Assembly: GCA_973895155.1 (NCBI GenBank) | Contig: OZ316891.1 | Coordinates: 10,975,875 to 11,039,874, forward strand | Source of the DNA: Marsupella aquatica | Lineage: Eukaryota > Plantae > Marchantiophyta | Direction: 5' to 3' | DNA length: 64,000 nucleotides | Shown here: positions 22,058 to 64,000 of the stretch, piece after piece | Numbering within the stretch: the first letter of the stretch is position 1 | Layout of the letters: each line of letters starts with the position of its first letter | Notes under the pieces: model-generated | Told to the model about the DNA's origin: nothing | The model's database searches: none | Seen by the model: the letters and a program-made list of their open reading frames with translations, nothing else | Program-made: the position numbers and the translations under genes

Positions 22058-22304
22058 CTGGGGTCACTTCCATGGAAGTGACATATTATGTGCGATGAAA
22101 TATAGGACCATTTAAATGGTTTTGGCGGAAAACTTATTAAGTCTTCTATGGAAATATAGGGTTGTTTAATTACAAAATGCATACGTGTCATCACATGATT
22201 GGTGTCGTATAACTTTCTAGAAAGTGACTTAGGGGGGTCATAAATGACGCAAACCATCGCACGTGATGTATGACCCTTCATATAGTGACCCCCCCCCCCC
22301 CGAG
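22058..22304. mobile_element. MITE derived from the same family as the large DNA transposon starting at 45248
   Basis: Imperfect TIRs ctggggtcact...agtgac(c)ngag; first ~110 bp align with 45248-45365; flanked by direct repeat aaaatatc (22050-22057, 22305-22312). Confidence 0.85.
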
Positions 22305-25689: not shown

Positions 25690-26571
25690 ATGCTGGGGGA
25701 CAATGATCTCTCCCTTCTTCTTTCGCTCGTGTTCGGATGGGTGGATGGCAAGACCCTCTCAACTTTCTGCTGCGTGTCCAGACAGTGGCTGGGAGTAGCC
25801 AGGCAAGAGCATTTTTGGAAGGATTTCTGCCATGTGCATTGGCCATCGTCAAGCAGTGATAGTGGGATTTCAGCCATCAGAGCTGTAGGGGGGTACCAAA
25901 AGTATTATGCTCTTCGCCTACAGGCCCAAAAGCATGTCTCTGTCCCTCGTCGCAGGATATCGGAACCCAGGCTTGGAATGCAGGACTTTATCATGTTCCT
26001 GGACGTCGTCTACAACGGTACAAGCATCTGCTCGTTTGTCAAGGGAGGGGAGGGACTGGAGCCACTGTACATAGCTCTGAGTGCCAAACAGGGCGTGTTT
26101 AGATTCGGCATGGACTTTCCTGAACGCACATCTGTTCCCTTCCCCACTTCTCTGAATCCAAATCAATCCTCCCCGCCTTTGATCCGAGAGGACTGCAAGG
26201 GGTGGAGGAAAGATCAAGTGAAAGATTTCCAAATCAGCTGGGCTGTAATGGAGAAAAGTACCCACAAGATGTTGCAGCTGTTACAGACTAGCAAAGGGAC
26301 TATGGTGGGGTACACATGCACATTCAAAGGTTGTCTTCCCGGCCACTCTTGTAATCCTTCAGGAGGCACCAATCACATTGTAGAGGTGGACATCATGTGC
26401 AGATGCATCTCTCCCCCGCAGCAGCCTGGTCAGAATATGAGGGACCAGGGAGACTCTTTGATGATCTTACAGCAGTTGAAGTTTGGATTCATGATCTTCC
26501 CGGAGTGGAGATACTTCACTCAGTTACAAGCCTGTCGTTACTTGCAGCACATATTCAATCACGAAATGTAG
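25690..26571 (+). CDS. F-box protein (single long coding exon; ORF open from 25576, an upstream exon is possible)
   Basis: N-terminal LLSLVFGWVDGKTLSTFCCVSRQWLGVARQEHFWKDFCHVHWP is a typical F-box motif followed by GGYQKYY; ~293 aa uninterrupted. Confidence 0.88.
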   Translation: MLGDNDLSLLLSLVFGWVDGKTLSTFCCVSRQWLGVARQEHFWKDFCHVHWPSSSSDSGISAIRAVGGYQKYYALRLQAQKHVSVPRRRISEPRLGMQDFIMFLDVVYNGTSICSFVKGGEGLEPLYIALSAKQGVFRFGMDFPERTSVPFPTSLNPNQSSPPLIREDCKGWRKDQVKDFQISWAVMEKSTHKMLQLLQTSKGTMVGYTCTFKGCLPGHSCNPSGGTNHIVEVDIMCRCISPPQQPGQNMRDQGDSLMILQQLKFGFMIFPEWRYFTQLQACRYLQHIFNHEM

Positions 26572-37727: not shown

Positions 37728-40700
37728 TGTTGTAGCTCATCAACAACTAACTCCTTTATTCATTCCTCTTCCAATACATATAGTCCCTTAGGCAGGTAGG
37801 GTAGTTAGGCGGTTAGTCTTAACCAACTGTGGTAGGTCTAACCTTAGTTAGGCTAGAGTTAACTCGGGTTACAACACTCCCCCTTGGGTGTAACATGGTC
37901 TTGGGAAGGAATGTTGCACCCACATTTAGTTTACTCTAGGTGGTGGGAATGTAACCTCATTAAAACCCCCCCTCCTTTCTTGTGGGGGGAAAGAGTGTTA
38001 CCATTCCTTCTTAAAAATGTAATTCGTAAGTGTAATTGTGTTGTGTTAGTGGTAAATTACTTGTAAAGTCTAGTGTAGGTAATAGGAATGAAGTGTAAAC
38101 GCCCTAATGTATTTGCGGATTGTGTGGTCGATTGTTTCGTTTGTGAGTAGGGAGCTCTTCGGTTCGAGTGGGGGAAGATTCGCTTTCGATTGCTTCACGT
38201 TGTAAGTGGATTCGGAGATGGAGGTCGGGCGAATCTCCCCCTGAAGGTTGCCAGTTGAGCTTCTCACTGTCGATGGTCGAATCGATGTTGGTTCTTGTTT
38301 CTCCCAGGTTCGTTGTTGCGGCTCCTCCATGTTCTAAGTGCTTCACCGAGTGATTCTTTGTGACCTGGCGTACCTGTGATGTCGTGTCTGCATTCCGATC
38401 ATTGTGTCTCGAGTTTATTGATTCGATCCGGTCTGCAGTTGAGATAGGCTTCGCATCCCTATCGAGTGTGTATGCCGGTTGTGTAGATTCGGTGGGAGTG
38501 CTTTCGTAAACATGTCTGCAGAGTTGGATTCGCTAGAGATCCACTGAACTGCGATGCTTTTGTTCTGCTGCTCGTGAGTAAAGAAAAACTTAGGTGCAAT
38601 GTGTTTCGTTCTGTCTCCCTTGATGAACCCTGCTTGGATTTGATCGACACACGGTCTATTGTCTTCATAGAGTTGTGTGGGTGTGGTCAATCTCGGTATG
38701 CCTGTGTTTTCGTGTATGTGGTTGATCACATTGCGTAGCCATATGCATTCCCGGCTCGCCTCGTATAATGCGATTATTTCGGAGTGGTTTGACGAGGTTG
38801 TGGTCAATGTTTGCTTGTTGCTCCTCCATGAGATGGCCGTATTGCCCATCAGGAACACATACCCTGTCTGTGATTTCGCATCTGCGGGGTCCGACAGGTA
38901 TCCTGCATCCGCGTACCCGGTAAGTAAGTAAGTATCATGCTTGGGGTAGAATAAGCCGAGGTCTGTCGTGCCTCTTAAGTATCTGAAGATTCTTTTAATG
39001 CCGTTCCAGTGTCTTATGGTTGGCGTTGCGCTATGGCGTGCCAGTAGGTTCACTGAGAATGCCAGATCGGGTCTTGTCTGGTTAGCGAGGAACATCAGGA
39101 CCCCTATTGCAGATAGGTATGGTTTGTCTGAGCCAAGTAGTGGCTCGTTCTCGTTCCTCTTCCGGAAAATGTCCTTGTCCATATCCAATGAGCGAATGTC
39201 CATTGGGGATTTGACTGGTTTGGACTGATGCATATTGAATTGCTTCAGTATTTTTCTTGTATAAGTAGATTGGTGCAGTAGGATTCCATTTGGCAGATGT
39301 TCGAATTGTAGGCCGAGGCAGAAAGTAGTCTGTCCCAAGTCTCGCACTTCAAATGCCTTTTTCAGTAATTGGATAGTTTCCAGCATGATTCGGCTGGTCC
39401 CGAATAAGTTCAGGTCATCCACATATATTGCAATGATTATAACTTCACGTCCTTCCTGCTTGAGGAATATGCAAGGTGTGATATCTGAATTTTTAAATCC
39501 CATGGTTAACATTTCAGATTTAAATCTCTTATACCAAGTTAGGCCGCTCTGTTTCAGGCCATACATGGAGCGAAGGACTTGCACTGCAAAACGAGTTTGC
39601 TTGGTGAGCATTTGCTTTGAAGAAGCTTTTAGTGCAATTGATTTGGCTATTGTATGTAGTACTGCCTCATTGGTGTGATCGAATTTGCTTTTCTCAGTGT
39701 GATCTAGTCTCATGGGTGTCTGCTCCCCCTGGCAGTGGTGTTCCACACGTTGTATCAACTCGGGTGGTGCTTCCATGTGTATAACTGTGTCCAGGTGCCC
39801 ATATAAGTATGCCGTCACTATGTCCAGTTGGTGCATGGATAAGTTGTGGTACTGTGAAAAGGTGATTAGGTAGCGGTAAGTGATGGCGTCCATCACTGGG
39901 GAGTACGTGAGGTCGTAGTCACGGCCCGGGATTTGGGTAAAGCCCTTTGCTACTAGTCGGGCCTTATGTCTGACTACTTCCCCCTGTGCATTCCGTTTCT
40001 TCACAAAGGTCCATCTGCAGCCTGTGAGGTGAATGCCTGGTGCTGCTGGAGTGATGGGGCCGAAGACATGGCGAGATATAAGGGAGTCTAGTTCTAGGTT
40101 AATTGCTTTTTCCCACTCGGGCCAGTCTGAGTGGGTTTGTGCTTCCCGGATTGTCTTTGGATCATGTGAGTCTTCGTCTATTTGTTGGGATATATGGAAC
40201 GCGAATTTATCATCTATTGTTGTGTGTGTTCTGTCCCATATGTGCCCTGTGCTTCCATAATTGATAGCGATCTCGTCGTTATCTTCTGGTGTGGTGGTCT
40301 GAGGGGTTGGCAGTTCTGAATGTGGTGATGGAGCTCTTGGAGGTGCTGCTTTCCTTTGTCTGGGTTGTTTGTCTGTAGCTCCTAGGGGGCGGCCCCGCTT
40401 TGCTCGTGGTGAGGTTACAGTTGCCGGTTGGATGTCCATCTGTATGCGCGAAGGTGTGTTTGCTGCCGGTATGTGTGATCGGGTTATTTTTGCGGCATCT
40501 GCAAAAGAGTCTGGTAGGTGTTCTATCAGGTTTGTGAGGTGGAGTATTCTTTTAACTTCCGTGTCAGATTGGCTAGTTCGGGGATCCTGCCAAAATGCAG
40601 ATTGGATTTGCCAGGTGAGAGATTTGTCGCTATCTGTTTCCTGTCTTGTTTGTAGTTTTGGAAATGTAGTTTCATAGAAGTGGCAGTCGCTGAATCGGGC

Positions 40701-43489
40701 CTTAAAAACGTCGGCTGTGGTGGGTTCCAGGTATCGAATGATGGATGTGGAATCACATCCAATGTATATTCCTGCTTGCCGCTGAGGGCCCATTTTGGTT
40801 CGTTTGGGGCCCAGTATTGGTACCATTACTTGGCAGCCAAAGGTTCGAAGGTGAGTTATGTTGGGGATGGTGCCGAGTGCCAGAGTGTGTGGTGAGCTTG
40901 AGTTGTATGCTGACGGTCTGTAACTGAGTAGTGTGGCAGAGTGTAGGATGGCATGTCCCCATGCGGTTGTGGGGAGGTTGCTCTGCATCAGTATTGGTCT
41001 GGCAATTATTTGGAGGCGTTTTATCAACGATTCCGCTGTCCCGTTTTGGAAGTGGACGTGGGGGACGGGGTACTGTACGTCTATGCCTGTAGCAGTGCAA
41101 AAGTCTTCAAAGGTTTTGGAGGTAAATTCCCCTGCATTGTCCACTCTGATTGTCTGGATCTGGTTATCCGGGAATTGTGCTCTTAGTTTCAAGATGTGAG
41201 CCAGTAAGCGAGGGAAAACTAGATTTCTTGTGGATAGGAGTGAGATTTGGGACCATTTAGTTGAGGCATCTATTACTGCTAGGTAAAAGCGGAATGGGCC
41301 ACTAGGGGGGTCGATCGGTCCACATACATCTGCGTGGATCCGTTCCAGAAAGTTGGGGATTCTGGTTCCAGGTGGGGTTGGTGAGGGCCTTATTATCAGT
41401 TTACCTTGTGAACAGGCAAGGCATGGTCCGAGCATAGATGTGGGGTGTACTGTAGGCGGTATGCCCTTGGTCTGTTTAACGATTCTCTGGAACATGTTAA
41501 GGCCCGGGTGGCCAAGTCTCCTGTGCCAGATCTCTGTGATGGGGTTTTGTGGCTTTTGATTCTCTGGCTCGGTATGGAAGCTGTGTATGTTGGTAGTATA
41601 AAAGCCGGGGTGATGGGCTTTTAGTGTTTCCAGGATCCCATTGTTCTGTGGAGTCTTGGATGTGATATGTAGGACTTCGAGTTTGTTGGAAGTCCCAGTT
41701 TGGATATGCAGATCATTGGCTCTTATGTCTCCAACACTTAGGAGGTTCCTGGTGGCTTTGGGTGCGTATATGGCAGAGTGTATCTTTATCACTGTGCCTT
41801 GTGGTAATGTGACGGTTGCAGGTCCGTAGCCCTCCTCTAACTGATGTTGGCCCATTATGGTGGTGACCTTTCGCTGTGATGGGGTTATGTGGGTAAAGTA
41901 TTCCTTATTTTTCAGAATTGAATGTGAGGTCCCACTATCGACTATACATGAGTGAGGATTGTTTGGGTTCTTTGTGTGGTTCCTTATAATCATGTTGATC
42001 TCGGGAAGGATCTCAGCGGAGTCCATGAAAGTGCCATATGTTTCAGGTGCGTTTGTGTTCATGCTTTTCTTATAAAGGGCTACTAGATGTGAAGGTGCTC
42101 TGCAGTGTTTCTGAATGTGCCCTTTAGTTCCACAGCGAAAACAGAGAGGGGGGTTGGTGGTCATATCTCGTTGGTTGTGCTGGTCCTCGTTGAACTTCGT
42201 GCGATTCTGATTATTGTTCTCTCTCGTCCAGGTGTTCCACGAGCTCCTGCCGTTGTATCTCGATCTGCCTTGGCCGCGTCCTCGGTGGAAATTCCCTCTG
42301 CCGCCTCGTTGAAAGTTATTGCTTCGACCCCTATTCGGGCTGCGTCCCCTGGTGCCTGCGCGGCCTCGATAGTTTCTTGATTCTCCCCTCTGTGGTGTGG
42401 CGTAGTTGGTCTCGGGAGCTGATGTGGACGGGAGGGTCCCCGGTGGGCGTTTCTGCGAATTTTGTAGTAGTAGGAGCTGGTGCTTTTCAGCCAGCAGCAT
42501 ATGCGCAATTAGTTCGGAGTATTTGGTAAAGGCCATATTCCTGTATTGTGTAGAGAGGATAAGGTTTGAAGAATGAAGAGTTGACAGTGTTTTTTCGATC
42601 TGCTCTGCATCGTTTATTGGTTGGCCGCAGATGGCCAGTTGTGCGATGATCCTGAATAGCTCACTGTTATAATCTGCGACCGTCTTGTAGTCTTGGACGC
42701 GCAGATTGATCCAGTCGTGGCGAGCTGCGGGTAGGTAGATAGTTCGAATGTGATCGAAACGGGATTGTAGGTCATCCCATAGTAGCCGGGGATTGAATTC
42801 GTTCATGTATTGTTTCTTCAATGGCTCGCATAGATGGTGCCGAATTAGTATTAAGGCCTTCGCCTTTTGTGGGAGAGTAGTTCCCGCATCTGTAATGATC
42901 GTGTCTTGGAGTTCTTTTGCTGCGAGGTGGGCCTCAATATCTAGAGTCCAGGATAGGTAATTTGCGCCGTCTATACTCAGAGGTTGAAATAGGAGTTTCT
43001 CGATGGAGTTAGTGGGTACAGCCATCTTCTATCAATTGGTCAATTGATCCTGTGATAATAACAATATATCCGTTCGCACTTGACTGAGTGATGATGTGGG
43101 GCTATGTCCCTTCTTGAGTCGTTGTCTCTCAAGTTGAATTCCTGGGTCTGCCTCCGCTTCTTCTATTGTCAGCCCCCTCAAATCCCAATCCGTGGAATCG
43201 TGGTCAAATTATACCACTCCCGATCGATCTGCTGCCCGAAAAATTAGTTTCTATGGTGCTGAATCAATCGCCTTGGCATGAATGTCCCTCTGAAGCTTGT
43301 TTGAAAAAAAATTCTCGTTGCAGACATCGTGCTGATAACGTGTTGTAGCTCATCAACAACTAACTCCTTTATTCATTCCTCTTCCAATACATATAGTCCC
43401 TTAGGCAGGTAGGGTAGTTAGGCGGTTAGTCTTAACCAACTGTGGTAGGTCTAACCTTAGTTAGGCTAGAGTTAACTCGGGTTACAACA
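37728..43489 (-). mobile_element. Full-length Ty1/copia LTR retrotransposon, Bianca-like, recent insertion
   Basis: Two 149-bp TG...CA LTRs (37728-37876, 43341-43489) identical by eye; 5-bp TSD TTTTG; PBS cgttatcagcacga (43340-43327); PPT aagggggag next to the left LTR. Confidence 0.97.
38415..43025 (-). CDS. Copia gag-pol polyprotein (gag, zinc knuckle, protease, integrase, RT, RNase H), 1536 aa, intact
   Basis: CFRCGTKGHIQKHC knuckle, IVDSGT protease, WHRRLGHP...CLAC, DVCGP/RVDNAGEF/NGTAE integrase, YGLKQSG and YVDD RT, GYADAGY RNase H; integrase precedes RT. Confidence 0.97.
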   Translation of the reverse strand: MAVPTNSIEKLLFQPLSIDGANYLSWTLDIEAHLAAKELQDTIITDAGTTLPQKAKALILIRHHLCEPLKKQYMNEFNPRLLWDDLQSRFDHIRTIYLPAARHDWINLRVQDYKTVADYNSELFRIIAQLAICGQPINDAEQIEKTLSTLHSSNLILSTQYRNMAFTKYSELIAHMLLAEKHQLLLLQNSQKRPPGTLPSTSAPETNYATPQRGESRNYRGRAGTRGRSPNRGRSNNFQRGGRGNFHRGRGQGRSRYNGRSSWNTWTRENNNQNRTKFNEDQHNQRDMTTNPPLCFRCGTKGHIQKHCRAPSHLVALYKKSMNTNAPETYGTFMDSAEILPEINMIIRNHTKNPNNPHSCIVDSGTSHSILKNKEYFTHITPSQRKVTTIMGQHQLEEGYGPATVTLPQGTVIKIHSAIYAPKATRNLLSVGDIRANDLHIQTGTSNKLEVLHITSKTPQNNGILETLKAHHPGFYTTNIHSFHTEPENQKPQNPITEIWHRRLGHPGLNMFQRIVKQTKGIPPTVHPTSMLGPCLACSQGKLIIRPSPTPPGTRIPNFLERIHADVCGPIDPPSGPFRFYLAVIDASTKWSQISLLSTRNLVFPRLLAHILKLRAQFPDNQIQTIRVDNAGEFTSKTFEDFCTATGIDVQYPVPHVHFQNGTAESLIKRLQIIARPILMQSNLPTTAWGHAILHSATLLSYRPSAYNSSSPHTLALGTIPNITHLRTFGCQVMVPILGPKRTKMGPQRQAGIYIGCDSTSIIRYLEPTTADVFKARFSDCHFYETTFPKLQTRQETDSDKSLTWQIQSAFWQDPRTSQSDTEVKRILHLTNLIEHLPDSFADAAKITRSHIPAANTPSRIQMDIQPATVTSPRAKRGRPLGATDKQPRQRKAAPPRAPSPHSELPTPQTTTPEDNDEIAINYGSTGHIWDRTHTTIDDKFAFHISQQIDEDSHDPKTIREAQTHSDWPEWEKAINLELDSLISRHVFGPITPAAPGIHLTGCRWTFVKKRNAQGEVVRHKARLVAKGFTQIPGRDYDLTYSPVMDAITYRYLITFSQYHNLSMHQLDIVTAYLYGHLDTVIHMEAPPELIQRVEHHCQGEQTPMRLDHTEKSKFDHTNEAVLHTIAKSIALKASSKQMLTKQTRFAVQVLRSMYGLKQSGLTWYKRFKSEMLTMGFKNSDITPCIFLKQEGREVIIIAIYVDDLNLFGTSRIMLETIQLLKKAFEVRDLGQTTFCLGLQFEHLPNGILLHQSTYTRKILKQFNMHQSKPVKSPMDIRSLDMDKDIFRKRNENEPLLGSDKPYLSAIGVLMFLANQTRPDLAFSVNLLARHSATPTIRHWNGIKRIFRYLRGTTDLGLFYPKHDTYLLTGYADAGYLSDPADAKSQTGYVFLMGNTAISWRSNKQTLTTTSSNHSEIIALYEASRECIWLRNVINHIHENTGIPRLTTPTQLYEDNRPCVDQIQAGFIKGDRTKHIAPKFFFTHEQQNKSIAVQWISSESNSADMFTKALPPNLHNRHTHSIGMRSLSQLQTGSNQ

Positions 43490-44812: not shown

Positions 44813-45247
44813 TGTAGAGGTTAACTCAGTCTTGGGTTGAACTATGGTTAGTATGTTAACTAGGGTTAGAGTAAACCCTAGTTGAAGAGTTGGTCTTTAT
44901 CTCTTCAACTTCTATGTGGTGTGAGAACACACAAGATAGTTCTCAAGAGAGAACCAGGGGATATAGCAAGAGATGAAAGCTTGAAGAGATGAGAGCTATG
45001 GTGATGCTTGAGTAGACACATAACCGTTAATAAAGCTTGGTCTTCCCGTGGACGTAGCCAACCTTGAGGCGAACCACGTAACTATTGAGCACGTGTATGT
45101 TTGGAGTGTTTTTCCTGATCTGATTTCTCCCCACAATTGGTATCAGAGCCAGGTTTTTTCAGTCGATTAGGAACTCCATAGAACTTGCTTCAAGCAAAGC
45201 GAACAGCGGATGATTTCCTCTTCGAAGCGGAACTATTGAAAGAAGAT
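44813..45247 (+). mobile_element. 5' LTR (44813-45135), PBS and leader of a second, probably copia-type, LTR retrotransposon, interrupted by the DNA transposon at 45248
   Basis: TGTAGAG...CCCCACA ends; tRNA-iMet PBS tggtatcagagcc at 45138-45150; internal cccgtggacgtag...cgaaccacgtaa motif typical of plant copia LTRs. Confidence 0.85.
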
Positions 45248-45619
45248 CTCGGGGGGGTCACTTCCGTGGAAGTGCCACATCACGTGCGACGAAGTATAGG
45301 GCCATTTAATTGGGTTCGGCGGAAGACTTCCGAAGTTTCATGGAAGAACAATAGGGTCCATTTTAATTTTTGGGCCGCTTTAAAGAACAATAGGTATTTA
45401 TTAAATGGGACATGTTCCACGGAAGATGTCCATGAAAGTTAGGGTTGCTTGCAATAGTTCTACATGGGACACACGGCCGGGCACACGGCATGTTGTGATT
45501 GGTCCAAGTGTCATAATATAATTGGTACACGTGTAGGGTACTATAGTCAAAATTGAGTTTGGGGTTTTGGGGTTTGGGGTTTTGGGGTCACTAGTAGAAA
45601 CTGGGGGGTATTTAGACCC

Positions 45620-45950
45620 CATTAAACGACTATGTAGTACCGTATAGGACTCGGAAACGACTGGGAAGGACTCCAGTCCTTTATAGGACTGTGAGTCATA
45701 TGTTTTGTTACTATAATCAACTGAGTCCTTTATAGAACTGGTTCACGAGTCGTTTAATAGACTGGATTTTCAGTCTATTGTAGTCTTTGTTTGGGTAGCT
45801 TTGGTGAGTCATTTTCAGTCTTTTAAGGGGTGTGATGGCGAGTTGTTGGGAAGGACTAAACAGGTTATGGAGGGTAGTCTTTAAGTTTACTTTGTGGGTC
45901 TATAAAATGACTAAAGGAGATATTTAGTGGGGTATGTATAAGTCTTTTAT
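45620..45950. repeat. Subterminal array of GACT/AGTC motifs
   Basis: More than 15 copies by eye in ~330 bp, both orientations. Confidence 0.7.
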
Positions 45951-46338: not shown

Positions 46339-49300
46339 TCACTGCAGACTAACACACTCTGATGGCCAGAGCACAAGAGATCCTACTGCATCTGCAATTA
46401 TTTCCTGAGGTGGATCATCATCTCTATTCGGAAATGGCAAATTACAATCAGATACAATCACTATAGTCAACAACACTACTATATGGTCATCGGGGACCAC
46501 TTTGCCATGGAATTTAGCATGATCCGGTCACAAAATGCCTGTACCCACACATACCTGTGAGTCATCCTCCCATGATTGAAGATTATGGACTGGCTCTGCT
46601 ATGGCTATCACCTCCACCTTACCCTAGCTGTTTTTCTTGGCTTTCCTGGGTGGCTTATACATGACATTATTCATACCTTGGTTGCGAGTCATGACTTTGG
46701 CACGAGTGTTTTGTGCTGGTGATCGAGAATTGGCTACACTCTTCTTCAAAGAATCTGCATCCATATTTGACACTTTCGATTGTGTAGCAGGATTTCCTTG
46801 CGACATCATCTCAGTATATGCCAACATTGTACTTGCTTCAATTGAAGCATCTACAATCTTACTTGCATCCAATGTTGCTCCCAAATTTTGACGTCGCTTC
46901 ACCCTGCTCCCACTTGGTTGAGAGTCTGACAACTCTGCATCAACTACAATTCAGTGTCATTGTCCAACTTAAGTGAATCACTCATCACATGTGCTACATG
47001 TACATGTCACCAACCACAAAGTTGTCACTATCTCCTTACCATTATGAACAGCCTTCTTCCCCTTCTTTGCCATTGCCATATCCTCCATGTCTGCTTCTGC
47101 TGATAAATAAACACACCACAATATTCAGGTTGAATCTATTAACCATTGAATTGTCTCTCAACATTCATATAGAGGAATTTAAAGCATCAGCTTACCTGAT
47201 ACCTCCTTGGCTATGGTCACTGAGGCACTGGGCACATCCTTTTCATTATTGCTCTTTGAGTCACCTGAAGCAAGTTAATCATGATGTCACTTCAGATCCC
47301 AGTTGATCCAACCAGTTCTTATAGAAAAGATTACCTCCAATCGGCTTAAGCTTCACAAAACTCCATGCACTTTTCAAATGTAATCTACTGGATCATAGCA
47401 GGTTACCTGTCTCAGCAACCTTCTTGCCCTTCTGCTTACTGATTACAGGGCCCTTCGATGCCTCCACTCTTCCTGCATTCAAACCATTCACTCAATTCAT
47501 GAAAACCCACTTCTAATATTTGAACATAGGACACAATGAACAATGGGCCGGTGTCATTTCCATACCTGTGTCAGATTTGCCAATTCCCTTTTTTGTTAAC
47601 AAGGGCACACTTTGTACAAGGTTGCCCTCATTGTTTGGCTGGGAACCACCCAATTTCTCAATCACAAGCTTGAAATTAGATTCCACTGATGCAAGTAGGT
47701 TTGCTATAGATGCCTCCAAAATATCCAAACGATCACCCAATTTACTTTCCACTCGAGGAAGTCCACACTCTAATGACTTCAACCGTTCACACATCTCTGC
47801 AAGAGTTGTAACAGTTCCCTGTAATCACACAGCTTACATATCTCAGATAACTGTCCCCAAGAACTGGTTGCTTACTTCCTACTACATTTCCTTCTGATGC
47901 TATCGAACATCACAGAATTACAACATAATCACCTGTTTGGAAGTCACACTTGTGACCTCACTCCTTTGTTTCATGAACTCCTCTCTCACTTCTTGTGCTG
48001 ATGGTTCTTCACCTGTCAATTTCTTCTGTATGCCACATCAACATACATATGAATTAAAGCAACTGTTGATTGTCAATGAAAATGCAATAATAGTAGCAAG
48101 ATGATTAGTGATAGGCTACGCTTACTATCAGACATGCCTTACCAGTTGTTCTTTCACTGGAGCATAACTTCCTCTCCCAGCTTGTGAAAGGTGTTTCACT
48201 TTGCCTCGAGCATTTGACATCAGTTCACTCTTGCTCTGCCCAGCCTCTGACATGAACCCTTTGATTAACCGTGTCCATTGATCCAGTTCCAATGATTGGG
48301 GTGCTGGCATTCTCCTGTTAGAACCATTGTCTATCCACATCCTTTTCAACCTATGTCTCTCTTGTTTCAAAATCCTCATTGCATAATCTGATATGCATTC
48401 TTCAACTGGGCCCTTACCATCATTACCAACATACTCCCACCGTTCAAGAATGTCCTTGCAAATAGCAGCCCAATCGGCTTTGTTCTGACTCCTAAACTCT
48501 GTAATGCTCAAATCTAACCAGCTCAATACTTCTCCTCTCAAGTCAGAATGCCAGCGGTTCTTACCATCACCTGTGGGAGTTATCCAACCATCGGAATTCA
48601 CTTCTACTTTACCAAATTTGTTACTGTCTCCTGCCTTGGTACTCCCTGAAGCGCTACTAGGTGTCCCTCCACGGCCTGGTGTCCCCCCACGGCTTGGGCC
48701 CCCACGGCCTGCACCACGGCCTGGAGCGCATTGTGCAAACCTCCCTGGAGTCCCTGCACATTTACGGGAACCATTTTTTAAGTATGAAGCATAAATTTTG
48801 CTGCCAAATATACACTGAACTTCAGAGGAATTTTGCAATGACCAAGTTACCTCTCCCTGGGCGCATAGATGGTTCTGGACCATCTGTCCAATTGCCTTGT
48901 CTTGATGAATTAGGGCCGTTTCTCCTGCCTGTGAATGATTGCCTCCTATCTGAACGTGGATGGCCTTTGTTGTTTTCGTGATTGTCCCAATGAGAGTCTG
49001 CATTCACCAACAGGCACATGCCACACTCATGGACCGGTTAGATACACTCTTTGCCCTAGACATCAGATAATTCCATATTGAGCTACAATTTCTACTACCA
49101 TCACAAAATCACTAGCACAAAGCACTTACTTGTCCAATTATCCTCCTGATCTTTCCATTGCCCTCTGTACCCATCTCTACCACGCTCTGGGCATTCATAT
49201 TCACCCCATCCATCTTCTGCTCCATCGTAGTCATCATCATAATCATCAGGCGTCCCTTGCCAATAACTCTGGCTCCTTCTAGGGTATGGATTACGTGATT

Positions 49301-49900
49301 TCTCTCTGGCTGCCCACCTACCTGGCACTTGATCAGGGCCCTGTGCATCTTGCACAGGTGCATTTTTCTGTGAGCCCCCTACATCTGGATGTCCATCCAT
49401 ATCCAATCTTTCCTCTTCACCCCACTCTCCAAGCCCCATGTCTGTCTCCATGTCTTCACCCTCTTCCCCCATAGTTTCTGCACAGCATCCACAACCAAAC
49501 CCAGGCTAAATGAGCACACTAAATTCAAAGTATCAATCAATTTCATGCATATGGACATGACCAAAACATCATTTTGGGAAGCAATTCCCGTTCTGTGACT
49601 CTGTGCATGTAGTCATCCTTAACCTCATCAAAGTGAATCTTCAGCCGCTGCCTATTGCACATCATCAACCTCATCATATTGCATCTCCCCAGGTTCATAT
49701 GTCTCTCTCAATGTTAAAGGGATGTAGTCAGTCCCTACCCGAGTAACAACATTGGAATTAAGGGCTCAGAGAATTAAAACTGCGTCTTAAAGGTACTAGA
49801 CAGACAGTAACAGTGAGGAAGGAAGCTGAGGTTTCGCAGGCATTCACTGTCTATTACATGAAGCGGGCCAAGGACATTGTCTACAGGTTTAGCGCATGCA
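46339..49900 (-). pseudogene. CACTA TnpA-like gene copy 1 (Ptta/En/Spm-like helical domain plus C-terminal Tnp1/DUF8039-like domain), multi-exon, with premature stops; 5' boundary approximate
   Basis: 48128-48570 KNRWHSDLRGEVLSWLD...LKQERHRLKRMW...QWTRLIKGF...SELMSNARGKV; 46339-46620 FHGKVVPDDHIVVLLTIVIVSDCNLPFPNRDDDPPQEIIADAVGSLVLWP; in-frame stops at 46528-46530 and 46624-46626. Confidence 0.75.
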
Positions 49901-52890: not shown

Positions 52891-54517
52891 GATGGGCTTT
52901 GATTCACAGGTCGCCCGGCTCGGTCCCTTGTTGCAGCTCGCCCAGCTCCACAACACCATAGACAAGGAGTTCGCAGGTCGAGTTTCCACCACGCAGCGTT
53001 AGCAAAATGACAATGCTTGATCTTCGCCCTCCGCCCTTTGCCCGAACCCCAAAATATCACAAGCGCAGCTCCAACGTCCAACCGGCAACCCTCCCCCAAG
53101 CTTTGTTAGACAAAAATCAGCACAGCACAGCTGAGCTCGACGGAAATAAGCTTAGCACCCACCGCAGCTGAACAAAGCTCACACAAGAGCTCATACGGGA
53201 GCTCGCTGTGGGAGTAAAAGAAAAATAGGAGGGTCGATGGCAGCCCGCAACTCCCACTGTACCCTGCTCCTTCACAACTTTGGCGAGCTCCTTTGCAACT
53301 CCAATGCAAACTACTATCCACAATTGTAAATGCACATCAATCAGCCAAACCTAAACCCTCCCACTGAGCTCAGACTCCCGCACAGCACTCCCGCAGTAGC
53401 ACTCTTGCAACAGCAGCGCAACCCTTTGCACTCCCGCAGCACTCCCGCAGCACATTGCACAGCCTCCCGCAACACTTTGCACAGCGCTCCCGCAGCTCCT
53501 GGAGACCTGATTGAAGCCTTGATTGCACACTCTTGAGGCAAAACAGCAGCGCAACCTTGCTAAACCCCTCGACCCTCTCGCCCTAAACGCTGAGTGGCAG
53601 ACACTAACCGCAACATTCAACGTTGAGCCTCGATACTTTGTGAGAAAAGTAAAACACGACTGAAAGGCGCGAGGGTGAAAAGGGTGCAAAGAGCCGTTTG
53701 GCGCCAACCTTACCATAACATGGCAGCCCCTAGAGTGATCTCAGCCATCCGGATGAAAAGAGATTGCCTTGAGTGATCTCGACCATCAATATGCAGGTTT
53801 CATGTTAACCCCAGGCCCCCATTCCCTCTACGTCAAGTGTCTAAATTAATTACACTCCAAGCCTTGTCTAGCCCCTAAAAACTAGTGCTAAGTCATGACT
53901 ACTAGGCCCTCTCAAAGTATTGCCCAGCTGAGTAAACTTCCAATATGCAACTTTTTGATGGTGGGGATCGATGGACTCCATCCAATGGTCCCTAAACCCC
54001 CCATCCCCTTAACCCTAAACCCCCCACCCTTGACATCTCAACCCTCCACCCTTGACATGTAAACCCCCCCTAAACCCCCTTTAGTGAAAACTCAGCCACC
54101 CCCACGCCTTGACATATAAACCCCCTAAACGTCTGGACAACTCGACTATGGCCAGACTGTTTTTGCAATGCCAGGGGCCATTTTAGAGCGCCGCTTGCAA
54201 GTTCATGAAGCATGTTGCCTCTAGCTCTCCAAATCCTCCCAAGGCAGCAAACAAGTTAGGGTCCACGGTCCCTGTTCGTTTACCCTAAATTGCTGCGTCA
54301 CTATTTCAATTGAGTGTTCTCTGACCCAAAACCCCATTCAAGTTGCTGACTTCTAATCTGCATTCCTCATATTGCAGGATGGATCAAAGGAGCCCACAGG
54401 GAAGTGATGCCCCTAGTGGAGGCTACTGGCTGTGATCGCTGGTGGACTGTTGCTCCTTCTGGTACATCACATGCCTGTCCCTAATTTTTGAAGGTAATTT
54501 TGCAGATCTTGTTCAGC

Positions 54518-55213
54518 ATGGCACACATCGCTCGTCAGTTGCTGGATCCAAGATTTGGGCATAGGGAGCACCTTCGTATGGATCCCCCTTGCTGTTTTGA
54601 ATGTGACGAGGGAGGAACTGTTTTGTTCTGTGATGGCCCTTGTGGTCGCCATTTTCATTATGTAGTTGATGGCCACAACCCTGATGAAGAAGATGGCCAT
54701 GGACCTACATGTCAGCGCATTGTCATTTCCAGAGGTCACGATTGGGCTGCAGCTTGGCTCTATGATCTCTGTCAGCAAAACAGAGGAAGATGTTTTGGTT
54801 GTGGGCTCCTTGGCAGAACCTTGAGAGCCAGCACAGACGAGCCCCTTGTGGTCCAGTGTTCTCATGATGATTGCTACTCATTTTACCATGTGGGTTGCCT
54901 CCGGACACTTCTGCGATTGGGGGAAATGCCATTCACCCGCCATCCAGATAACCCTGATGCACATCCCGATGCTTTTATATGCCCACGACATTACTGTGAG
55001 GTCTGTAAGGAGTATCGGGAGGGCATTTGGGACTTTGTCCAATGTCGTAGATGCCCTCGTGCATGGTGTCGTGATGAAGGACCAACAGCAGACAGGCACT
55101 TGAGGAGAGGGGTGAGGGGCCGAGACACCTGGGACATTGGACAGTGGCGCATGATTTACTGTAATCGCCATGTCATTCCAGAGGGTTCTGATATCCCTAG
55201 TACCCATGACTAG
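54518..55213 (+). CDS. Stand-alone EDM2-like composite PHD finger module (transposon cargo), possibly degenerate
   Basis: CFECDEGGTVLFCDGPCGRHFH...RCFGCGLLG...VVQCSHDDCYSFYHVGC...FICPRHYCEVC...VQCRRCPRAW...W...MIYCNRHVI is collinear with the recalled EDM2 PHD region (CAICDNGG..CCEG.CLRSFH...CFICK.LG...FYHP.C...CPLHKC.VC...CRRCPKSYH...LIYC.EHEI); WLYDLC appears to have lost a Cys via TGT>TAT. Confidence 0.85.
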   Translation: MAHIARQLLDPRFGHREHLRMDPPCCFECDEGGTVLFCDGPCGRHFHYVVDGHNPDEEDGHGPTCQRIVISRGHDWAAAWLYDLCQQNRGRCFGCGLLGRTLRASTDEPLVVQCSHDDCYSFYHVGCLRTLLRLGEMPFTRHPDNPDAHPDAFICPRHYCEVCKEYREGIWDFVQCRRCPRAWCRDEGPTADRHLRRGVRGRDTWDIGQWRMIYCNRHVIPEGSDIPSTHD

Positions 55214-55397: not shown

Positions 55398-56210
55398 TCA
55401 AACAAAATGGAATTTTGATGAATTGAAATGGACTACAATAGATTGAGTGTTCAGATGACATTGTGAATGGTTGACTTGAGTCCTGATCTTTTTCCATGTC
55501 TGTCCATTGTTGTATGACAGGTTCATCTACCTAATCCCTCTCCCTCACAACCTGTATAACTGTCCATCATGGCACACCTAGGCATGAGCTCTGTCAGATT
55601 GGTAGAAAAGGTCAAAAGCAAGCTAGAGGGGTACTAAAAGGATCTCCACTTTCTCCACCAAAAGGACTTGGGTCCTTGAACTAATTCTCAGAATATTCTC
55701 CAGTGACCAAAATGTGACATGGAAGGGCCCAGATCTGTTTCGTGCCCATCCAAAGGTTAGATTTGAATTTGAGTCCAAATATGCATTGAATGTACCCCTC
55801 TAAAGCGAAGTGGTGGCCCCAAAAGCCAGTTGTTAGTGATTAAGGATCTTTGTTTGATTATAGACGCCGGTTTTAGGACGGTTCAAAATTCAAAATATCA
55901 ATTAAGACATCCCAAACTTTATGCTAAATCCAAAACAAGGACTGTTGCAACCACTGTTGCCCGACGACTCCTTTGGAGCTTCGTGACTTATTTTGAATGT
56001 TGCGTCGGACTCTGTATCCAAAGCTCGAGGCACAACACGCAATGCTTTCAATATTCCCATTCTTAAAGAAACGCTTGAAAGAATGCACACGGTCAGGTTT
56101 GATGTTGCATTATTTTCAGATCCCTCCTTTCACTTGAGAGTCTTCCTTATTCATGAACAATTCCATTTCGGAAGTCGGAGATATTTAGAGTAGAGGTGAG
56201 TGCGTAGAGG

Positions 56211-59200
56211 GTGGGCACATACAGAGCTTATTTGCAAATTCATCAACGAGAGATGGTGATTCTTAGTAACGTAGAAGATGCACTTGAAAGGATAAAGAGA
56301 GAGGCTCGTAACCAAAGAAGGCGTCAAAAATACTACGATCAGTCTGAGAGGAAGAAAAAAGATGCAACCACTCAATGCAATTGGGAGAACGAGGTTCTTG
56401 CGGATGCAGAGCAGCATTGTAATGACATTCTTGCAGATGCGGAGCAACAAGGTTTGGATATGCTTGCGGATGCGGAGTTACAATGTGAAAACATGCTCAC
56501 TGAGGTAGAGCAAGAAGGGCAGCAATTGCTTCGTGGTGTGAATCAACAATGCAAGGCGCTAAAGATGGCTGCTATGGATGACATACGAGAAATCACTGCC
56601 CAAGCACAGAGTGAGGTTGCTCCGTTGTTACACACCATGCTTTCAAACTTGCAAGAGGAAGTTGCTAAAGGCAAGGAAAGAGTCTGTGTTTTGAATGCAA
56701 CCATAGGCAGAAGGGAAGCACGTCTCCAAGCATTGAATGCGCAACTCGCAGTGTCTATTGATGAGCCAGAGTTTCAAGTTCATGATTTGGACAAGGCTGT
56801 AGCATTTCGGAGAAGAGACGCAGCAAGGAAACGAGCTCAATACCAAGAGGAGCACCAATCTTGCACCCGCATGAAGAGAACGGGGGTATGTAGTGACCAC
56901 GGTGATCCTATCCCAAACCGGAAGCGACAGTGCATCAATAGATTAGTTTCCAATTTCATTAGGGTTTTAATGAGTCGAAGGAAAGACCTTAATGTGGCTG
57001 CTAGAAAGCTAGTTATGGAGAGATTTTGGTTGCATAGTGCTTTGAGACAATACCAGCCTGCAGCGCTTGGGTGTGCAAGGCTAGATGCATCTGTAGGGTC
57101 TACCATGATTGACCTTGTTAAATCTCTAAAAATTGTGAAATCAGCTAGACGCAAAGATCATCTAGCCATGAAGAGAGCGCTCTTGATATCGCTGGTAGGA
57201 GAGTCCATAGTAGGGAGTAGATACCAGACCTCATTGGCCACAACTTTGGGTGTCAAACGTCAAAACATCCACAAAGCAGGTGCAATGAGGAAACAGCTTG
57301 ATCAGGATGCAGCATTGAGATATCCTACCGGTGACCGAAAGGTTAGGAGTGACAAGATTTCTATTGAGGTGCGAAAGATTGTGGAACAATACTGGGAGAG
57401 CAATACTCAAATTTCTCCTTGCAAGAAGGATGTGGCCAAACTATGCCTAGGTTTGAAGCAGTACGAGAAGCATTCCAAGCATTGGCTTGAGGATACTGAG
57501 GTAAATAATTATTTTTTGCTAATAGTATGATCGTGTTGAACTCGTATTCTCTGAAGTGCATGACAGAGTTTCTATGAGTAAGCTGAACCTTACCCCCTGG
57601 CGAATGGATCCTGATTTCATATTGCGTGTCTTGCAGGTTGAGCTCTTCATGAAATTCGAAAATTGGTGCACCGTGGAGGGGAATGGCATTTCTATAGGTC
57701 TCAGATCTTTTCAACAATTAAAGCCATACTATATCCGCACTATGAAGGATAGAATGGTTTGTTGCTGCAAACAACATGTTGAAATGGACCTGTTGAAAGA
57801 GGCACTCAACAAGTTCAGGAGACACCAGCACCAAAAGGATTGTAATTGTGAGTGTTCCATATGTAGATCACCCAATGCTTCTTTAGAGGGTCGCAGTTGT
57901 ATTGCCTCTAAGACATCCATTACTTCAGTACGAGAATGGATGGAAGGAGCAGTTTGTCCTAAGCTTGAGGGTTAGGAATGGCACCGGAAGAGTTGTATTT
58001 TTGGTCAGTGTGAGAGATGTGGAGTTCACAAGTTGTCATGGTGTGAAATGGAGATGGACATCATAGAGACACCTTATATTGATTGGGAAACCTTTCAATA
58101 CGTGGAGCTAGATGAGAAGACACAGAACAAGAGAGAAAAGAAAAAAGGGACTGCTGAAAGCGCACAACAGAAGGTAAAGCGCTTGCGGATGGTGCATCGA
58201 AGAACTTCTCTTCCTGATTTCAAGCTGCACGTACTAGGTACAATGAAGACATTTCTTATTCATAATTTTCGAGCCCGTTGGCAAGCTGTTCAGTCCAAAC
58301 TCTGCTTTACCTTCCCGCGGGGAACTATAGTGTCGTCCATAGACTTTTCTGAGAATTATACGTTCAAGGTCCAGAATGAGATCCAAACTCAGCATTGGGA
58401 TAATAAACAAATTACCTTGTTGATTCTTGTGACATACAGACATCGTGAAGATGTTGAGTCTATTGAGGCTGCCGTAGGTAGGTCTGTAGGAATGGCACAA
58501 GACAGCATTGGGAATCGAGACATTATAGCTGATTACCATTTTTCATTAGTGATGACAACACCCATGACACCCTTTTTGTGCAACACTGCATGGACTCACA
58601 CGTAAACTGGATGAAGCAAGAGAAAATTTCATTCAAGCACCATTGGGTTTGGTCAGATGGAGCGGCTTCACAGTTTAAGGCTTGCAGGCCTTTTTATTAT
58701 GTCTCCAGATATTACAAGCGACATGGTGCTAGAATGAAATGGTTCTTCCATGCTTCAGGACATGGAAAGGGGGTTGCTGTGAGTTTCTTAACTCGTCTTT
58801 GATCAGTTACTGCTCTATTTGACCATCATGAACAATCTGATTCAATACTATAGTGAGCTTTCATTGTAAATAGTGAGCTTTACAAATTGCACAGGTGTAC
58901 ATTCATTCACCCTTTGATTGAATTGTAATTGGTGTGCTTCATTTCAGGATGCTCTTGGTGGTCACATTAAGAGCGGAATAGAGAAGGAGCAGCTGAAAGG
59001 AATTCATGGAGCTCGGTTGGAGAATGCTGCTGATGTGGTTGCTTTTTGCAAAGACAAATTTGCCCTTGGCCAAGAGAAGGAATATGGTGACGTTCAATTG
59101 GTGAGGCAAATGTTTTGGGAAATTGGTGCACATGAAGTGAACCGAAGGAAAAAATGGGACTGTGACGCAATCAAGGGAAGTAGAACACTACATTGCTTTG

Positions 59201-59811
59201 ATGGGTTTAGTGATCGTCTCTCTACTCTTTTGCAAGTAAGGGATCTTTGTTGCTTCTGTGCTCATTGTGTAGATGATGAACCAGCCAAATGTGAGAACAT
59301 AGAATGGGTAGGACATTTTAAACTCGAGATGGTGAGAGGAGTACTGCCAATTGATGTGATACCTGACATACACAACATAGGACTAGGGGAAGGAGGTTCT
59401 CAATGGCAGGATGGCTTTTTGGCAGAATTGGTCCAACTAGGTGACTTTTATGCTGTTGAAGCCGAGCAGCCAAATAAGTGGGGTGCTGATTTCTACGTCC
59501 TTCAATGTGAGGAGGTACTGCACACAATCAAAGAGAGATTTACAGACGGGTATGAGGTGGAGTTCGATGCAGGCGACTTGGCATTGAAGGGAAGGTGGTT
59601 TCAACCAATTCCAAAATCAGAAACCAGATTTGTATTCAATGACACTGCACCCTCAAGCTATACTCATGCAAAATCTGTAGTTCATATTAGGTTTGCTTTG
59701 ACTCCATGTGAGGTTGGTCGAAAGGGTGGCAGTAGGATGTACATCTTAGATGTACATTCTCTAGAAGCAATCTCTGCTTCCTTGACTTCACAAGTCACTG
59801 TTGGAACGTAG
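56211..59811 (+). pseudogene. Sola2-type DDD transposase; exons ~56211-57500, 57637-58778, 58948-59811; one nonsense codon (57973-57975) and one frameshift (~58540)
   Basis: IDFSENYTFKVQNEIQTQHW, ISDDNTHD, VWSDGAASQFK and, after splicing, FFHASGHGKGVA|DALGGHIK are the motif blocks around the Sola2 catalytic aspartates; upstream Cys/His clusters CCCKQH and CIFGQCERCG. Confidence 0.85.
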
Positions 59812-59874
59812 ATTGTGCATTTAGGCGCTACAATGGAGTGAAGTGCCTGCACTAGAAGAATCCGAGGTGAACTG

Positions 59875-60205
59875 AGACCGCAATATATGACTCATTTTGG
59901 CTCATGTGACTTCATTGTGACTCAACGTGACTTGACCCACGCTGTGACCCTTGGAGTTGCAAAAGTTGAGACCAAAAAATGGAAGTCACTATTGATACTG
60001 GGCTTTGCAACTTGCTTGATACCCATTTGTGACTGATCTGTGACTTTATTGTGGAGTCTAGCCTTGTTTCGACGTGACTGCAATATGACTTCAGCGAGTC
60101 ACATCGTAAGTCACATACATGACTTACCCGCATTCAACAACGACTAGCGTGTGACTATTTAGTGTCACAAGAGAGACCAATGGAGACCCTGGCCCGCGTC
60201 ACACA
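59875..60205. repeat. Internal array of (G/A)TGACT / AGTCAC motifs between the convergent transposase and TnpA-like copy 2
   Basis: About 16 copies by eye in ~330 bp, both orientations. Confidence 0.8.
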
Positions 60206-60704
60206 ACAGAACCATTTGGGACTCTATATACTCATGTTTATAACTAATAAGGTTCACATGCAAGTTATAACCATGACTAATGAACACAGAGGGACAGTTC
60301 ATAAGGAGAGAGAGCACTCGACATTACAATACATAGAAACCTGATGTTCTAACTTTAGAAATATAACACATTGAATACAAGAAATGAACATAGCATGAAT
60401 GACATCCACATGAAACAAAGCATCATATAAGCAGATCCTACATAAAACATTCATAAGAATTAAACACAATCACAATCTTGCTAAAAAATGAAGATCATTT
60501 GAATTCCAATGGAATAGTTTACAATGTGATCAATGTAATTTAGACAAAACAGGAACTCATAATTGATGACTGTAGGATGAGATAACTGAAAGCACATGCA
60601 TGATACTATGAATCTCCAAGAGGACATGATTCTTGTACTGCTTCTTGACATCTAAAATCTACATAACATGACTCACACTACAAACAAATAATGGCATGAC
60701 ATTG

Positions 60705-63700
60705 TTATGGATCCTCTATGAACTTGCTTGGCCATAATACCAAAGAACCTGCAGCATCTCCAAGTGTCTTTTGAGGAGGATCATCATTTGTGTTTGGAAT
60801 GGGAAGGATAGCTTTAGGTTTCACTAGTAATGTGACTAACACTACTGAATAACCTGGGGGAATCCTCTTGCCATGGAACGTTGTGGAACCAACCTGCACT
60901 CTGGCAAATCCTACTCGTGTTCCACTCTCATCAACAGCTAACAAGCCACTTTGTCCCTCAGCATTAGGTGCTTTCCCCACTTCCACCTTAGATCTTTCTG
61001 CCAGCACTGTTCTTGGAGGTTTGTATGAAACCTTTGACGTGGCTCTGCTCCCACCAGCAGACTTGCTTCGTGTGCGCATGCTTCCTCTCTTCACAGTAGT
61101 GAAGCTAGGCTCAGTAGGTTCCTCTATTAGGACTGTCACAGTAGCAGGTTCATCACCTGGGAGTGTCATACCAACTAACTCTTTGGTTGGATTTATCTCA
61201 ACAAGAGGCACACCTGTCATTGAGAATGATACATTCTGCAAATCATTTATCTCTGCAATGGAGTCAAGATCTACATAGCATGAATCTGGCTCAATGGTAT
61301 CATTGTCATGCTTGCTGATATCCTCATTTGCCCCAACATTGATATCATCCACTCCCTTGCCAATGTCATCCTCATCCAAACATGGTTGACTGCCCTCTGT
61401 CAAACAAGTTGCTTGTACAGACTGCAACTTTGTTGCCTCTAAATTACAGCGAGTATTTGCCAGGTTCTCATACTTCTTCTCTGTAGCACCTGTCTTATTC
61501 TCTATGGACACAACAACCACAATATATGTTACTGAAAATAACACATTCAACAAACAATGTCAATTCAAACTATACATTTAATAATCATATCCCACACAGT
61601 TGTAAAGGCCTTACCTTCAAGCCTACATGTCGTTGGCATGCCAGAAGAGTGCATCGACTTTGCCACCTCAAGTGGTGATGGTGGAACTCCTGCAGAATTG
61701 GAATCAATTTTATCTCTCACCGACACAACAGCTTCCATTAAGGTCTTGAAGTTCACATGGAACAAGTCAGTCAATGAATTCAAACGTTCATTGATCTCTG
61801 GAAGACATGTTTCGACAGCCTTCAAACGACCACTTATCTCTGTAAGTGAAGATCCACCTCCCTACATGACACAGGGGTATAGGTTCAATCACTCCATATG
61901 AAATGTTGGGCAATATATGCACAATCAATGTTATATACAGTGTACACCTGAAATTCAACGCAGGTCATTCAATTACCAATCAGAACTCATATAACTTACA
62001 TGCTTGGAGGATTCAGATGCACCCTCTTGAGCCCGGGTGTTCACAATTTCAGCCCTCAACTCTTCTTTTGAAGGGCTTTGCCCCAATTGGGCTTTCTGCA
62101 CATGCATGGCAAACACAAGTTATCGATCAATATTCAGGGAACGTACACTAAAAAACAAAGTTTACATGTATGGGTTTACACTAAAAAATAGTACATAGTG
62201 TAGCATAAATTACATAGCTAGGCCATTCATTCTTACCAAACGTTTAGCTGTCGGTGCAGTGCCGGTCCTTCCTGTCAGATTAGGGTTCTGAACACTCAAC
62301 CTGGCCTCGGTCATCTGTGAACTCTTCTTTTTTGAAGCATCTGTTACAAAATAAGCTACTAACCTTGCCCACACTTTATCATCACAACTGGCTGGTGGAG
62401 GCATATCTGGCTTCTCCCCACCTTCCTTCCAAGCCTTATGCATTCTCCACCTCTCTTGCTTGATAATTTTACCTGCTGTACTCTCTAGGCAACCTATGTC
62501 CACGCCATCATCACTGCCCACATAATTCCATTTGGCAGCAATATTTTCACATACAGTCTTCCAATCTTTTGGATGCTGTTTTTTAAAATTAATAGCACTC
62601 ACATCTAACCAACGCAATACTTCAGCTTTCAAATCAGCATGCCATCGGTTCTTGCGAGGACACTCAGCATCCACCCATTGTCTCTCATTCAACTTTATGT
62701 TCCCTTTCTTTGTCACCTCCCCTCGTGCACTGCTCTCGGTAGTACTGGGCGTTGTATTGGCCACCCCTTCATTCACCCTACCTGGGGTTCTGAAGCCACC
62801 TGGGAAAATACAATGCCATTCATGCTTGAGAACTACATATAGCAGAATGGATGACGGCAACATTCAATGCTTCACTTCAAGAAAAATTCTTCAAACATAC
62901 ATACCTGTAGCTCTGCCTGTAGATGCCTGTGCAGGGACTGCACTCTGAAATTGTTGCGACCCTGGACCACCTGTCCAGCCTAGTACATGGGCCGGATGAT
63001 GTCACTTTCTAGGTATGTGTGTGCAAACATATGTACTGAAAACTAAGTACAAACTGTAGGAAAACAACTGAACATTCACCGACATACCTGTCCCCCTTCC
63101 GTGCTGCATCTGCATAGGGGCATTAGTGAATACTTGAGTCGATGGTTCGACTGTCCAACCTGCACACATACATTTTCTATCATTATACATGTGCAGAGTC
63201 CCCCCCCCCCACGTGAATGGACTCCACATATAATGAGTTCTTCCATTGCTGACAAGATCAGACATTACCTGCTCCTCTTCCAGCGTTTGTAGGTACTGAA
63301 TTTTGATATCCCTGCCAATTACCTTCACCACCTTCCCAACCTTGTTCATTCCACGACCCACCACCATCCTCCCAACCTGGTTCAACCCATGTCTGTCCTT
63401 GTGGACATTGGAACTGATCATTACTAGCATTTGCCCAATCAGGTTGGGCAGAATCTGCATGCAATGGCAGGTGGACAGAATTTCATGTTGTCTGAATCCA
63501 ATACATCCCAAACAATGTCAAAAATTGATATGCAGTCTGAAATTCAGGAGTGCCATGCCTTCACAAAGAACTGGCATATAGATATATACTCACATCCCCA
63601 TGGTTGAGGTGGACGTCCATACCCACGAGATTGTGGGTTTGGACCTGCTCTGCCTCTACCACGGGCATAACCTAGAGCTTGCCCCCTGCCATAGTATTGG

Positions 63701-64000
63701 GCACCAGCCTGGGATCTACCACTACTACCACCTCGCCAACCTTGATCAGAGGTCAGCCCCCCTGCTGGTATGGTGCATGCACAGGCTTCGAAGGCAAAAC
63801 AGAACTGGCAGGACGCTGCATCACATCACCAACTACAATGTCAAGAACTAAGCAAGGTACATATGTGTAGTACTGAACATATGAAACCTCTAAACAAGAG
63901 TTTTTAACTCAAAACCTTGTTGGGAAAACTACTTACATGTTTCTTTTGGGGCTGCTCTGCAATGTATTCATCTTCATAACCCCCATCCTCATCCATTTCC
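60705..64000 (-). pseudogene. CACTA TnpA-like gene copy 2, multi-exon, 5' end beyond window; probable frameshift near 63760
   Basis: 62238-62800 KNRWHADLKAEVLRWLD...IKQERWRMHKAW...VWARLVAYF...SSQMTEARLSV; C-terminus FHGKRIPPGYSVVLVTLLVKPKAILPIPNTNDDPPQKTLGDAAGSLVLWP; clearly paralogous to copy 1. Confidence 0.78.

Follow-up and report, generated by a model that had tools for sequence, protein, structure and literature searches.

CACTA/En-Spm transposons encode TnpA-type proteins (PF03004, Transposase_24; for example Arabidopsis TnpA-Spm1 and Spm3, and maize TnpA) from a multi-exon gene located inside CACTA ends that carry subterminal repeats. As described in the available part of a preprint, TnpA of Arabidopsis recognizes motifs that are clustered at the termini, and switches on its own elements via host demethylases (10.64898/2026.08.24.746577). 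In the partial sources at hand TnpA-only elements are known in Arabidopsis, and the plant transposon anti-silencing proteins VANC and TnpA act via sequence-specific demethylation. Two papers from 2026 confine TnpA-like domains, in their accessible text, to flowering plants (PMC13547354).

WG/GW platforms, such as the NRPE1 CTD, SPT5L/KTF1, WGRP1 and TNRC6/GW182, are disordered, glycine-rich regions whose tryptophan repeats were made by duplication. Parasite proteins may mimic them, TCV P38 reportedly being another pathogen GW mimic beside SPMMV P1 and HopT1-1. Argonaute targeting by SPMMV P1 (PMC2904775) and HopT1-1 (10.1101/215590), proteins with few GW/WG motifs, is experimental according to the accessible parts of both papers. 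Acidic-aromatic activation domains are disordered regions as well, in which Trp, Phe and Tyr stand among Asp and Glu.

Here we analyze a 64,000-nucleotide stretch of Marsupella aquatica DNA (the window), in which two TnpA-like genes, referred to as copy 1 and copy 2, each directly adjoin, on the inner side, a CACTA end that bears densely packed subterminal repeats. The original prediction held that both proteins carry disordered N-termini rich in GW/WG and RG, which may act as Argonaute hooks; the ten peptides that it quoted are all found on the minus strand where it placed them.

Two TnpA-like genes inside CACTA ends

The end of element 1 (CACTAGTAGAA, within 45589..45950, plus strand) is followed by GACT subterminal repeats, 18 being found against 2.3 expected, and that of element 2 (CACTAGAAGAA, an exact match, within 59850..60250, plus strand) by GTGAC/TGACT repeats, with 13 GTGAC against 0.9 expected. 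Summed contig depth, which should not be read as copy number, increases by a factor of about 30-110 in the bin that begins at 59818 in all four sequencing runs; this position marks the boundary of a highly repeated element and sets it apart from the transposase gene to its left. The other end of element 2 lies beyond 64000, and neither matching second CACTA ends nor 3-bp target duplications were found for either element within the window. A candidate right end of element 1 at 53887 was discarded, since no more than 7 of its terminal bases are shared and the flank does not match.

GT-AG exon ends were picked by eye and joined by script, all splicing being predicted from the sequence alone. Copy 1 (46339..49472, minus strand) displays nine predicted exons, the last of which has two premature stops, at 46626 and 46530. 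Copy 2 (60705..64000, minus strand) shows nine predicted exons as well, its 5' start lying beyond 64000, and its frame is open across about 773 residues except for a single one-base frameshift near 63756, where six C stand in a row, just 5' of the first GW. Contigs from all four sequencing runs have one more C at this site, so that the frame of the copy-2 family is open and the break is private to the copy in the window.

Concerning the conserved part of the proteins, copy 2 presents a folded, helical and likely DNA-binding core that includes the start of the PF03004 region (62237..62799, minus strand; AlphaFold2 mean pLDDT 91.7), and a last exon (60705..61501, minus strand) with a spacer and a C-terminal DUF8039-like domain. 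The core exons of both copies share 38% identity, and their PF03004 matches (E 1.5e-4 in copy 2, E 0.022 in copy 1) remain below the curated cut-off, which was passed by two of nine relatives scanned, P0003 and P0020. The copy 2 C-terminus itself has no Pfam match, and displays 41% identity over 76 aa (E 2e-18) with P0039, named as DUF8039-containing by UniRef. HMMER retrieved 57 relatives of the core exon at E<=0.001, and a profile search yielded one further full-length relative, the liverwort protein P0080; looking up the core exon in a word index gave no homologues, and neither of two metagenome locus scans yielded a confirmed relative. The core model is confidently helical, with no Foldseek match at E<=0.001 and, in a VIA search, best hits to FF domains (Z 5.1) and rows for BEN, Myb and homeodomains at Z 3.6-4.2. 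These fold searches did not confirm, in the core, the tandem tri-helical HTH of TnpA.

Overall, both proteins present the architecture of CACTA/En-Spm TnpA, i.e. a predicted disordered flank, a helical core, the PF03004 region, a coiled-coil stretch predicted by eye and a C-terminal DUF8039-like domain. As judged from the PF03004 region, the helical core and the DUF8039-like end, both genes are predicted to encode TnpA-like proteins of CACTA elements. They differ from the described members of the family in that their closest relatives are liverwort proteins: among 20 relatives looked up, the eight with a species name all belong to the liverworts Calypogeia fissa and Riccia sorocarpa. TnpA-like proteins with PF03004 or DUF8039 in Calypogeia and Riccia comprise P0003, P0016, P0020, P0039 and P0080. 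Judged by their Pfam and sequence matches, these relatives contradict the restriction to flowering plants given in the accessible text of the two 2026 papers, and would widen the family accordingly.

Tryptophan content and origin of the N-terminal arms

In copy 2, the arm is spread over several small exons on the minus strand. One of them (63594..63815) contains QGW, RG/GRG, GY/YG and PWG motifs, among them QGWRGG (63744-63727) and PQPWG (63609-63595), and it is this exon whose frameshift has no counterpart in other copies. It is followed by the tryptophan exon (63269..63454), which is acidic, has six Trp, includes a 27-residue peptide (63389-63309) and is predicted to be disordered (pLDDT 44, in a single-sequence model that gives weak support). 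Two phase-1 exons of 72 nt (63088..63159) and 75 nt (62905..62979) come next, and predicted splicing creates a GW across the 5' junction of each, yielding GWTVE (63160-63146) and GWTGG (62980-62966). Once the predicted exons are joined, six GW/WG share one frame, as the prediction of about six motifs had it; for copy 2, that prediction holds as to the TnpA-like nature of the protein, the disorder and the GW cluster in frame.

The copy-2 cluster arose by duplication in G-rich sequence. Five of the six Trp in the tryptophan exon derive from a 36-nt internal unit repeated at 27/36 identity, and the 72-nt and 75-nt exons are duplicates of each other (their alignment score was reached by none of 1000 shuffles). 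Hence, the GW/WG motifs are not independent, which weakens the count as evidence for an Argonaute hook, as does the borderline adjacency of Trp to Gly: six of the ten Trp in 236 aa adjoin a Gly, where shuffled sequences average 3.2 (P 0.066).

The copy 1 arm (48620..49472, minus strand) consists of an acidic, Trp/Tyr-rich part followed by an RG/RGG-rich part. It has eight Trp in 208 aa, only two of them adjoining Gly (shuffled mean 2.6, P 0.79). The peptides read from this region on the minus strand are GEWGEE (49430-49413), EDGWGEY (49217-49197), PGRGAGRGG (48724-48698), TPGRGG (48682-48665) and DGWIT (48592-48578). The last one was rejected as a hook because it is part of the folded core: it aligns to a hairpin with pLDDT 97 in the model, and the residue following Gly at the equivalent site is Trp, Ala, Leu or Lys in relatives. 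The earlier figure of about four GW motifs in copy 1 was therefore an overcount, since DGWIT belongs to the core and the RG motifs are not GW. Of the two arms proposed to be GW/WG-rich, that of copy 2 is so, and that of copy 1 is Trp-rich and not GW-rich.

Both arms share a high Trp content, 4.2% in copy 2 and 3.8% in copy 1 (P 0.0009 and 0.005 against a background of 1.25%; significance is lost against 2.5%), and no Trp occurs in the downstream spacers of the same two proteins (180 and 72 residues). Trp surroundings are more acidic than random positions in copy 2 (P 0.039), and not significantly so in copy 1 (P 0.19). Pairs of Trp 12 aa apart are found in copy 2 (118/130, 123/135 and 130/142) and in copy 1 (106/118). 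Compared with plant Argonaute-hook reference domains, as far as the partial source describes them, the arms match in Gly, Trp and Asn, with an excess of Tyr, Gln and Pro and a deficit of Ser: Tyr reaches 3.8% and 2.9% against 0.4% (7-10-fold), and Ser half the reference content.

Conservation among copies and across the family

Variation among copies was collected for 63140-63620 from four runs of three organisms, over-divergent contigs being left out, and 40 of the 47 differences are listed. These 40 comprise 25 intronic, 7 synonymous and 8 non-synonymous variants, and the resulting pN/pS of 0.31 in the tryptophan exon (Fisher P 0.022) points to purifying selection on this exon. None of the 24 Trp-codon sites varies among the listed variants, an invariance expected with P 0.29 at the non-synonymous rate and hence not significant by itself.

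Two observations were made in loose contig ends of the same region. The GRG motif at the exon end, read by hand, is kept in divergent contigs. In a single loose end, represented by one contig in X2 and one in X4, WG replaces GW and the next Trp upstream is absent, which should be taken as an anecdote only.

On a wider scale, 59 relatives were scanned, 19 of which have at least 50 residues ahead of the core; many were called as a single exon or rest on gene models that may be truncated, and their arms may therefore be incomplete. None of the 19 shows three or more GW/WG and one shows two. The closest full-length relatives, P0003 and P0080, display Gly-rich arms with Tyr/Phe-Gly instead of GW/WG (17 Tyr, 9 Phe and 4 Trp in 226 aa, and 10 Tyr and 1 Trp in 117 aa, respectively). 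P0053 and P0033 have 5 and 4 Trp and no GW, short WVPG-like Trp motifs occur in P0025, P0041 and P0057, and most relatives have 0-2 Trp in the region. The tryptophan exon gave no usable match in the Atlas, and only matches with E>5 among PDB sequences. GW/WG conservation, named as a check in the original prediction, is therefore found among close siblings of copy 2, with the statistical limit given above, and not between the two proteins of the window or across the family. In terms of sequence, the family seems to have in common a glycine-rich and probably disordered arm in which one aromatic residue can stand for another, with acidic patches and, in many cases, RG motifs.

Possible functions of the arms

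The reading that we favour, and to which we give an even chance, is that both predicted disordered arms form a general aromatic-acidic, RG-rich effector surface, working in activation or in condensates, and not a dedicated Argonaute hook. It is preferred on the basis of the recurring aromatic-acidic arm, since a 40-aa window of this kind is present in both proteins and in 5 of the 19 relatives, of the exchange of aromatic residues between relatives that keep the Gly-rich arm, of the acidic setting of Trp in copy 2, and of the high Tyr and low Ser content relative to reference hooks. By analogy with TnpA biology, the helical core would bind the subterminal repeats of its own element, the arm Trp, Tyr and Phe, held exposed by Asp, Glu and Gly, would contact coactivators or one another, and the RG motifs may contact RNA or DNA. 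The arms resemble acidic-aromatic activation domains in being disordered, with Trp/Phe/Tyr among Asp/Glu, on a likely DNA-binding protein, and differ from them in being Leu-poor and rich in Gly and RG. Under the strict rule in the available text of Staller et al. (10.1101/2020.10.28.359026), i.e. a 39-aa tile with charge < -9 and WFYL > 7, two of the 19 relatives pass (P0003 and P0070), the other 17 fail, and both arms of the window miss (best tile of copy 2, charge -8 with 6 WFYL; copy 1, -11 with 7). Further points count against the effector surface: it leaves the preference of Trp over Tyr in both proteins of the window unexplained, the acidic setting of Trp is not significant in copy 1, the arms of many relatives may be incomplete, and no DNA-binding fold stood out among the structural matches of the core (best Z 5.1). 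It is compatible with Argonaute binding as well. If correct, the arms mark the effector region of TnpA, which is unmapped in the TnpA literature available to us, where a Trp-rich arm goes unmentioned.

That the copy-2 family evolved a true Argonaute hook, its Trp cluster binding the tryptophan pockets of the AGO4 clade (or AGO1) while the core sits on the element ends, so that AGO-siRNA is sequestered or misdirected there, we consider unlikely. The hypothesis fits only one of the two proteins, copy 2, and weakly, and does not extend to the family. In its favour stand the six in-frame GW/WG, the predicted disorder of the tryptophan exon, its purifying selection with invariant Trp codons, and the pair spacing, which fits the ten or more residues between human TNRC6 Trp sites given in the consulted part of a review (PMC9262622). 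To score the motifs, the dos measure was re-implemented from the available text of Karlowski et al. (PMC2910046; threshold 6.99, 'medium' class 25-150). The best copy 2 domain reaches 38.5 half-bits, in the 'medium' class (P 0.043 against shuffles), and in the six frames of the window no GW-seeded segment, out of 249, scores higher than the single-exon part of this domain. Segments elsewhere in these frames reach 31-34, hence dos discriminates poorly. Copy 1 arm segments score 5.5 and 8.2, a copy 1 segment at 33.3 being rejected as an RG tract seeded by a Trp of the folded core, and none of the 19 relatives reaches 25. The absence of the cluster from copy 1 and from the relatives, together with the composition of the arms, argues against a hook.

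Like the WG/GW platforms, copy 2 is Gly-rich and predicted disordered, with duplication-made Trp repeats, a Trp spacing of at least 10 and a medium dos. As far as the accessible text of PMC4476159 goes, plant hook platforms are likewise built of degenerate repeats, and liverworts possess a WG/GW-bearing NRPE1 and AGO4 orthologues. Unlike Arabidopsis NRPE1, with about 19 motifs in the same source, copy 2 has six; moreover, unlike those of the platforms, the arms are Tyr- and Gln-rich and Ser-poor, the cluster is not common to copy 1 or the relatives, and Argonaute binding is hypothetical here. The resemblance to the pathogen mimics lies in a parasite protein with few GW/WG that could target AGO; in contrast to SPMMV P1 and HopT1-1, with their experimental targeting in the partial sources cited above, it concerns a TnpA-like transposon protein, likely nuclear, known from its sequence.

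There is, in our estimate, a small chance that a highly repeated liverwort CACTA family built its own TnpA Argonaute hook, an end-tethered GW mimic that captures AGO-siRNA and locally blocks RNA-directed DNA methylation. If true, a transposon protein binding AGO directly would be a new arm of the host-transposon conflict, and counter-silencing by GW mimics, known from viruses and bacteria, would extend to transposons, where we did not find it in print. No transposon-encoded GW hook was found in the literature searched, which missed most subscription papers, and 'transpos', 'CACTA' and 'Ptta' do not occur in six supplementary files of PMC2910046.

It is improbable that the arm is a mere flexible linker under weak compositional constraint, with Trp and GW arising incidentally, without a role specific to Trp, from G-rich repeat DNA depleted of CpG and from small duplications. 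The two arms barely align (38 of 1000 shuffles match the score of this marginal alignment), most relatives have at most two Trp there, and the tryptophan exon tolerates eight amino-acid changes, as a linker might. The pN/pS value, however, indicates constraint on this exon, the two proteins concentrate Trp in the arm and lack it in their downstream spacers, and both arms hold about 4% Trp although the proteins are just 38% alike. Docking of the Trp motifs in the tryptophan pocket of a non-AGO host partner, for example a chromatin factor or CCR4-NOT, which GW182 binds through Trp motifs, is quite improbable, since, even if short Trp motifs lacking Gly recur in relatives' arms, they vary between lineages, and the candidate partners are hypothetical.

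Other features of the window

A multi-exon transposase-like gene is located at 56208-59811 (plus strand), with DFSENY, WSDG and GHGK motifs and no Pfam match, and it may resemble Sola3-type DDD transposases. Its stop at 57973 is absent from other copies, and a frameshift near 58540 was read by eye. Element 2 starts 38 bases past the stop of this gene, which was rejected as a part of element 2, since it ends outside the CACTA end and its depth differs at least 30-fold. Just 5' of it, in repeated DNA (many divergent contigs), an ORF at 54485-55213 (plus strand) has a composite PHD finger (PHD_NSD, E 4.6e-9), presumably EDM2-like, and is possibly a transposon-captured histone-mark reader.

A Copia-like LTR retrotransposon at 37727-43489 (minus strand) has kept its ORF of 1537 aa intact, and its two 150-bp terminal repeats are identical, which indicates a recent insertion. 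An LTR-like piece (45090-45340) lies directly left of the element 1 CACTA end, followed by sequence that we take to be primer-binding-site-like; an 83-bp stretch of this region recurs at 22060-22142 with 82% identity. Host-like features comprise an intronless F-box ORF (25558-26571, plus strand) and a short-chain dehydrogenase exon (6966-7472, plus strand). Finally, near-perfect inverted repeats at 5469-5700 and 10324-10423, with arms of 44 and 34 nt, are possibly MITEs or hairpin RNA precursors.
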